A stretch of DNA of 64,000 nucleotides from an uncultured Actinomycetes bacterium (GTDB lineage Bacteria > Actinomycetota > Actinomycetes > Streptosporangiales > Streptosporangiaceae), in NCBI GenBank assembly GCA_963751175.1, contig CAVVTM010000035.1, positions 25,035 to 89,034 of the forward strand. The letters are read 5' to 3'. Of this stretch, positions 49,966 to 50,120 are shown in pieces. A model generated the notes under the pieces. It was not told the DNA's origin. It made no database searches and saw only the letters and a program-made list of their open reading frames with translations. The position numbers and the translations under genes are program-made. The first letter of the stretch is position 1; the number at the start of each line of letters is the position of its first letter.

Positions 49966-50120
49966 CTGCCTGCCTGCCTGCCTGCCTGCCTGCCTGCCTG
50001 CCTGCCTGCCTGCCTGCCTGCCTGCCTGCCTGCCTGCCTGCCTGCCTGCCTGCCTGCCTGCCTGCCTGCCTGCCTGCCTGCCTGCCTGCCTGCCTGCCTG
50101 CCTGCCTGCCTGCCTGCCTG
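49966..50120. repeat. perfect tetranucleotide microsatellite (CTGC) x 38.75
   Basis: Counted from the sequence. CTGC units run uninterrupted from 49966 to 50120 (155 nt). Confidence 0.98.

Follow-up and report, generated by a model that had tools for sequence, protein, structure and literature searches.

The repeat considered here lies in a stretch of DNA of 64,000 nucleotides, the whole of which was analysed and is called the window throughout. Around it, the locus comprises a gene of the beta-lactamase family (48122-49301), an ECF sigma gene that starts to the right of it at 49413, a tetranucleotide tract, and an intact gene for an efflux transporter of the MATE family. The tract is made of the unit CTGC, repeated 38.75 times without interruption from 49966 to 50120 on the plus strand, that is, over 155 bp of the assembled sequence. 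By TRF it has a period of 4, 38.8 copies, 100% matches, 0 indels and a score of 310, so the perfect array that the original prediction had placed here is present as it was described. A 16-mer of the repeat has 36 matches in the whole window, every one of them within the tract, where shuffled sequences would give 0.03. When rotated, the unit CTGC becomes CCTG on the plus strand, with CAGG on the minus strand, and the tract is accordingly (CCTG)n.(CAGG)n.

No perfect tetranucleotide run of four or more units occurs elsewhere in the 64-kb window, in which the CTGC motif reaches at most 3 units outside the tract, and the window contains 0 N bases. The surroundings of the tract are poorer in GC than the window mean of 0.73, at 0.57–0.61 to the left (49850-49999) and 0.64–0.65 to the right (50050-50199), which bears out what had been said of the flanks. 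The open reading frames encoding (LPAC)n and (QAGR)n that had been noted through the tract do traverse it, as a trivial result of a repeat unit without stop-forming triplets, which leaves the frames open; these ORFs are meaningless and call for caution in annotation. Single-strand DNA hairpins were predicted at -22.8 kcal/mol for the CAGG strand and -7.9 kcal/mol for the CCTG strand, and a strong non-B DNA potential of the tract was rejected because these hairpins are no stabler than those of shuffled controls. Repeats of other unit lengths are found at a distance. A perfect 27-nt tandem duplication at 44912-44966 (GCCAGAGGCGAAACAGGAAAGCAGAGC twice) lies inside an HrpA-like helicase ORF, in frame (ARGETGKQS twice) and with a GC content below that of its surroundings. 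In addition, arrays at 55536-55604 (16/33-nt units, x3.6/x2.1, 91–95% matches), 56109-56190 (20-nt unit, x4.3, 74% matches) and 57089-57152 (15-nt unit, x4.3, 93% matches) fall in a region with many indels among relatives.

The relatives used for comparison, denoted below by L numbers, were gathered by a protein-guided scan that kept one genome per species and yielded 80 loci, to which L081-L083 were added from ENA and JGI contigs. Nearly all of the 80 loci belong to Streptosporangiaceae or to unclassified actinobacterial MAGs, the best of them with 89–92% MatE identity. No identical or conspecific sequence emerged; across 5.8 billion proteins, the highest MatE identity is 93%.

The sigma gene is no longer intact. 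On the plus strand it can be followed from 49413 to 49839 as a pseudogene of the SigE family, as judged by a truncated Pfam match, the end of its blastn homology and a +1 frameshift. The match to Sigma70_r4_2 ends at position 42 of the 54 of the profile, and the protein is cut inside region 4 after ...LGCSVG; the intact sigma factor of the relatives scores 190 bits against TIGR02983 (SigE-fam_strep), for which the cut-off is 141.6. The frameshift lies at about 49635, where the window reads CGCCAAG and the relatives compared (L009, L004, L010 and L005) read CGCAAG. When 49300-50400 was compared with the relatives by blastn, sigma homology extended from about 49358 to 49836-49840 in 8 relatives, and no homology was detected from there until 50226-50320, where the region upstream of MatE resumes. 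The same gap spans about 1.5 kb in six of the closest relatives (L001, L002, L004, L005, L009 and L010), and in these it consists of the end of the sigma gene (...GTVKSQASRALAALRTSTELVDGGLQ*), a gene of 367 amino acids that overlaps it, and an intergenic region. No family match was obtained for the 367-aa gene.

What is left of this second gene is probably a short remnant. The 367-aa ORF ends in the relatives in ..GVGSGRFHGQ* or ..ETGSGRRGL*, and the window at 49839-49872, on the plus strand, reads ..IGSGRPKIL*. At the DNA level, 49839-49857 agrees at 16 of 19 positions with the syntenic site of L081 (3586-3604), with a score of 23 that equals the maximum of 2000 random controls, and the remnant agrees with L002 at 17 of 22 positions. 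These short matches suggest, with moderate confidence, that a deletion fused the sigma gene to what appear to be the last codons, about ten, of the downstream 367-aa gene. Relative to L009, about 1.1 kb is missing at the junction. The original prediction was therefore right that the last part of the sigma gene is gone together with the partner downstream of it; however, it had set the tract where the sigma gene is broken, and the break is the deletion junction at about 49839, which lies 126 bp upstream of the tract. Both lesions of the sigma gene, the +1 frameshift at 49635 and the deletion near 49839, are on this reading of the alignments independent of the tract, and the gene is a pseudogene for unrelated reasons.

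Decay of this operon has occurred more than once. In L081 and L082, the closest relatives by MatE (93%), it has decayed independently, by different internal deletions: all that remains there is remnants of regions 2 and 4 of sigma, joined to two internal pieces of the 367-aa gene (L081:3200-3620 and L082:1-140). In L081, an NmrA-like and a TetR gene stand just upstream of the operon fragments. From the comparison of these sequences, the locus is to be regarded as a recurrent site of gene loss under relaxed selection.

The low-GC flanks of the tract had been taken for coding sequence with rare codons, and they are instead the halves of an intergenic element. A conserved element, low in GC in the relatives too, is seen in the MatE-upstream regions of 11 relatives; its start follows the stop of the 367-aa gene, and in the window its motifs are present to either side of the tract, with ATGTTCAAT..CCCCGGCG.AAATGGC..GGGCCC..GTA on the left and G.AATGA.AAAT ... 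GGAAT..C ... GC(T)nC on the right. An nhmmer profile was built from the intergenic region of 10 related Streptosporangiaceae genomes and the whole window was searched with it. With the tract excised, a single significant match was obtained at 49885-50201 in original coordinates (E 4.9e-10), and the next best match had an E value of 0.8. When the tract is left in, the element matches as two separate halves, each abutting it. The 5' half on the left flank (49885-49965, plus strand) is matched at 49886-49966 by profile positions 19-99 (E 5.8e-5), and the 3' half on the right flank (50121-50206, plus strand), which carries the motif GCAATGACAAATA, is matched at 50108-50201 by positions 92-186 (E 4.8e-4), which places the tract at about profile position 99/100. 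Plain BLAST of the flanks against the related loci gave weak syntenic matches only (E 0.09–0.15) and was indecisive as to whether the flanks are foreign. Because the profile of the relatives matches collinearly across the tract, the flanks are, on this homology, native and not foreign, and form two halves of one element.

Searched with this profile, 13 relatives show the element unsplit, among them L083 and L003, neither of which had contributed to the profile. At the site of the tract, none of these 13 carries an insertion. The relatives carry 6–8 nt where the tract sits: the split point reads GGTA-CGCGGG-AAATGATAAAT in L081, GGTA-CGGCGGG-AAATGG in L006, GGTA-CCACCCGG-AAATGACAAT in L010, and GGGCCTGGCCTGG-TCATGACAAATA (also given as GGGCCTGGCCTGGTCATGACAAATA) in L004, in which the site itself is GCCTGGCCTGG. 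This last sequence looks like a proto-repeat and would make a plausible seed. Since the element is unsplit in the 13 relatives, the tract is an in-place expansion in native non-coding DNA, particular to this genome among those sampled. The element is kept in the 13 relatives irrespective of what lies upstream, and it is retained even in L081 and L082. It is about 170 nt long (e.g. L081:3574-3738 and L005:5546-5726) and contains a G(A/C)AATG motif three times, about 40 nt apart. Rfam returned nothing credible for the region of the window and five relatives, no tRNA was found in the element, and RNAalifold gave essentially no consensus RNA fold for it.

To the right of the element, the spacer becomes variable and then, immediately before the transporter gene, nearly invariant. 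A terminator-like hairpin with a T-run was seen on the plus strand at 50179-50206 (site 50179-50196 plus TTTTCTTGCC). The window alone passes the terminator scan and none of the syntenic places in L013, L005 and L081 does so; a conserved terminator was for this reason rejected, and the terminator reading of 50179-50206 is tentative. Then follows a fast-evolving stretch of GC-rich inverted and direct repeats at 50210-50274. The inverted repeats there are nested and lie between the terminator-like site and the block that precedes MatE; one of them, I2, has 16-nt arms that are 94% complementary, and TRF reports a 23-nt repeat of 2.8 copies. Native GCCTG/CAGGC motifs are present in this stretch, with GCCTGGCAGGCA at 50236-50247, and its GCCTGGCAGGC motifs, which are likewise native, are related to the repeat unit of the tract. 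The block next to MatE (50316-50355, plus strand) corresponds to columns of about 715-760 of alignment A1 and is conserved in 10 of 10 sequences; the rest of the spacer is not. It comprises about 40 nt, GCGAAAAGTCTGCAAGTAGATAATTATCGCAATTACC, with the half-palindrome TTGCAAGT..TGTCGCAA. Its conservation suggests that this block is probably the likelier site of a promoter or operator, with a very short leader.

The transporter gene itself (50356-51765, plus strand) is intact, with matches to Pfam MatE at 3.5e-45 and to TIGR00797 at 285 bits. It starts 236 bp downstream of the tract, on the same strand, and the tract is non-coding, falling between the remnant's stop codon (49872) and the MatE start (50356). 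No promoter-like hexamers were detected on either strand between 49700 and 50450. A small ORF at 49933-50127, with a conserved ATG at 49933, was considered as a gene and rejected, since the equivalent frames in the relatives are short and dissimilar. Nothing indicates that the tract is tied to the control of any gene. Phase variation of the Haemophilus kind, which had been brought up for the tract, thus finds no support in its position, with 236 bp to MatE, promoter hexamers absent and the ORFs unconserved. Between the MatE stop codon and the gene of an MptA-like protein, at 51800-51950, the GC content dips sharply to 0.46–0.59; this stretch is conserved in relatives with small indels, and no tRNA or Rfam match was found in it.

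Long perfect arrays are exceptional in this lineage, as had been expected. The 966 kb of related loci contain only two perfect arrays of short units that reach 28 bp, and neither is a long tetranucleotide. One is a perfect (CCGGGCTG)x9 at L008:5798-5869, which, like the tract, lies in the spacer upstream of MatE and passes without a gap into CTGCAAAAAG.TTGCA, the conserved block that precedes the MatE start; L064 has the second, (GCCGG)x6. The MatE-upstream spacer of L013 contains repeats of about 40 nt as seen by eye. Outside the lineage, a metagenome scan for 12 or more units of the repeat gave at least 120 contigs, and most of those among the matches listed are mid-GC. Among the 13 highest-GC contigs in the matches listed, 12 are without a bacterial coding pattern, and two contigs with low-complexity ORFs, L113 and L090, may be algal. 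One contig, L151, looks bacterial: it is a JGI soil-type contig of 67.7% GC with a coding-like coverage of 0.72, and it carries a perfect tract of about 15 CCTG units at L151:2369-2430, in a low-GC intergenic region some 40 bp upstream of the start of a minus-strand gene, the product of which has no family match. Such tracts do therefore occur in GC-rich bacteria. The 29 viral contigs with the repeat are all mid-GC and uninformative. In E. coli K-12, tetranucleotides of any kind reach at most four units (PMC7015867).

Taken together, the tract is probably a genuine and young microsatellite, expanded in place by slippage in a native spacer and probably function-less. We infer slippage as its origin, along with recency and neutrality. 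The seed may have been a short native sequence of the GCCTG type in the 6–8-nt spacer between two conserved motifs of the element, from which slipped-strand mispairing would have led to about 38 units of CCTG.CAGG. Its perfect purity would mean that the tract is young, or that it has been homogenised by frequent slippage, or both, and in either case length variation is to be expected within the population. Actinobacteria, the relatives included, are without MutS and MutL. NucS cannot repair indels in vivo (PMC7015689), and on these two grounds slippage products in the tract would escape post-replicative repair. Moreover, CCTG repeats form hairpins and dumbbells that are prone to slippage (PMC3152338), a propensity that may have helped the process.

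Two points speak against parts of this account. The relatives, which equally lack MutS/L, are nearly without long arrays (2 in 966 kb), and their scarcity implies that absent indel repair alone is insufficient to explain the expansion here. In addition, the element that the tract interrupts is conserved, which argues against neutrality. Even so, the tract is most likely neutral or nearly neutral hypermutable DNA at a locus of relaxed constraint, a view argued from its position only.

Among the alternatives, that which fares best, and is still unlikely, is an artefact of assembly or consensus produced in place, by which a short or heterogeneous repeat would be real and the length of 155 bp, its purity or both would be spurious. 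It could have come about when the loop of a de Bruijn graph was traversed without spanning reads, or when a consensus was drawn over long reads from heterogeneous strains. A perfect period-4 repeat of 155 bp exceeds, by simple reasoning, both the k-mers in common use (up to 141) and the reads (150), so that short reads cannot size it. Within 1.2 kb of the tract there are two +1 frameshifts, near 48950 and 49635, and the consensus may be poor locally; the region also varies between strains. The former of the two is in the beta-lactamase-family gene, which differs there by +1 from all seven relatives compared: the window reads GCCGGACGAC and the relatives GCCGACGAC or GCCGGCGAC, so that the site looks like a blend of the relatives' two alleles, and it reflects either a pseudogene or a consensus blend of this kind. 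However, the tract adjoins native sequence at each of its junctions, and the two belong to a single point of a collinear element, which means that on either side there must be reads that run from flank into repeat. There are also no N bases and no adapter similarity, and no frame-breaking indels were found in HrpA, MatE and the MptA-like gene over the parts compared in the rest of 13 kb, from which it follows that the assembly is not generally error-ridden.

The comparison with adapters used about 25 sequences in local alignment. For those of the ONT, Illumina, PacBio, 454, Ion and MGI platforms, 49801-50340 scores no better than random pieces of the window; an 8-mer to the left of the tract, AATGTACT, resembles the start of an ONT adapter, and an adapter or vector origin was rejected as the alignment scores are at the random level. 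Syntenic sequence surrounds the tract within the 64 kb, without a gap, and no contig ends at it. A chimeric or scaffold join, which the original prediction had raised as a possible source of the tract, is very unlikely in view of the collinear native flanks (E 4.9e-10), with N bases and adapter similarity both absent. A spurious tract between native flanks would need junction molecules on both sides, and a repeat at this site is thus very probably real.

Distinctly less probable is a contingency switch, in which the length of the tract would alter expression of the MATE pump, through read-through, spacing or DNA structure, or would act on a transcript or small ORF of the element, with phase-variable or graded expression as the outcome. 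The tract is upstream of MatE on the same strand and occupies the precise point between two conserved motifs of the element, which 13 relatives retain; the different perfect array of L008 abuts the conserved MatE-proximal block, and the tract of the same motif in L151 is about 40 bp upstream of a gene start. However, the distance of 236 bp to the MatE start is taken up in part by the terminator-like hairpin and the variable GC-rich spacer, promoter-like hexamers are absent on both strands from 49700 to 50450, and the ORF at 49933-50127 has no conserved counterpart. The element, moreover, has neither an Rfam family nor a consensus fold, and the 64 kb contain no second such tract, unlike genomes that use contingency loci. 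There is accordingly a slim chance that a GC-rich, free-living actinobacterium of soil, from a lineage lacking MutS/MutL, uses a hypermutable tract as a length-dependent regulator of a MATE pump or of an undescribed element RNA. If it does, this would be a switch of the contingency type outside host-adapted pathogens, and the array of L008 would be a second, independent instance.

The idea that the tract and its low-GC flanks came from another organism such as a eukaryote, by horizontal transfer or mis-assembly, and replaced the end of the sigma operon is largely refuted and barely credible: the GC of the flanks is below that of the genome, (CCTG)n is common in eukaryotes, most listed contigs with at least 12 units are mid-GC, or high-GC with non-bacterial and possibly algal coding, and the operon lacks about 1.1 kb in the window, but the flanks are homologous to and collinear with the relatives' own low-GC element (E 4.9e-10), 126 bp separate the deletion junction from the tract, and BLAST of the flanks against the loci gives weak syntenic matches only.

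Returning to slippage in place as the preferred reading, the tract is unusual for its lineage and yet most likely the product of an ordinary kind of event. If it is real at 155 bp, it ranks with the longest perfect microsatellites of tetranucleotide type that have been seen in relatives of GC-rich actinobacteria, and it would offer a natural test case for the behaviour of repeats where NucS mismatch repair ignores indels. Its possible uses, as a marker for strain typing and as a sign that a region cannot be sized from short reads, are of modest practical value.

Several known systems resemble the tract in one respect or another. In repeat-induced mis-assembly, a perfect low-complexity tract longer than short reads lies, as here, beside a structural difference from relatives, whereas the flanks in the window are collinear with those of the relatives and there is no gap, N or adapter. 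With the contingency loci of Haemophilus influenzae and Neisseria, the window shares a long perfect tetranucleotide array of tens of units, for which 4-nt replication slippage is presumed and hypermutability expected; its 38.75 perfect 4-nt units form just the kind of long uninterrupted repeat of a 1–8-nt unit that marks such loci. In these genera, which are host-adapted bacteria of low GC, there are many tract loci per genome, and the tracts are placed within the 5' portion of reading frames or between the two hexamers of a promoter. The tract in the window, in contrast, is single in 64 kb, non-coding and 236 bp from the nearest intact gene, neither within a switched frame nor between -35 and -10 hexamers; a conserved ORF and a promoter-like site are absent, and the host is a relative of GC-rich soil actinobacteria.

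The repeat unit CCTG.CAGG is identical to that of the human DM2 locus, (CCTG)n.(CAGG)n in intron 1 of CNBP. That repeat is eukaryotic and intronic and derives from an Alu element (PMC3378579), and its pathogenic alleles have 75–11,000 units (PMC10849350). There is no evolutionary relationship between the two; the tract in the window has fewer units than the human pathogenic alleles, and it is flanked by native bacterial DNA.

Among actinobacterial microsatellites, the intergenic and pseudogene STRs of Mycobacterium leprae are the best known, and the likeness to these lies in an actinobacterial host and a perfect short-unit repeat, with no assigned function, in intergenic or decayed DNA. In patient samples, the intergenic TTC locus of M. 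leprae, which serves in typing, has 9–17 copies, and the sequenced strain has 21 (PMC2271132). Repeats of this kind in M. leprae vary in copy number, are AT-containing trinucleotides of up to about 63 bp, and belong to a massively decayed genome of a host-restricted species, whereas the tract in the window is a GC-rich tetranucleotide of 155 bp in a genome that otherwise looks intact. As in M. leprae, the repeat occupies non-coding DNA. In the relatives of the present genome, the orthologous site, with its 6–8 nt, holds few or no copies of the unit.
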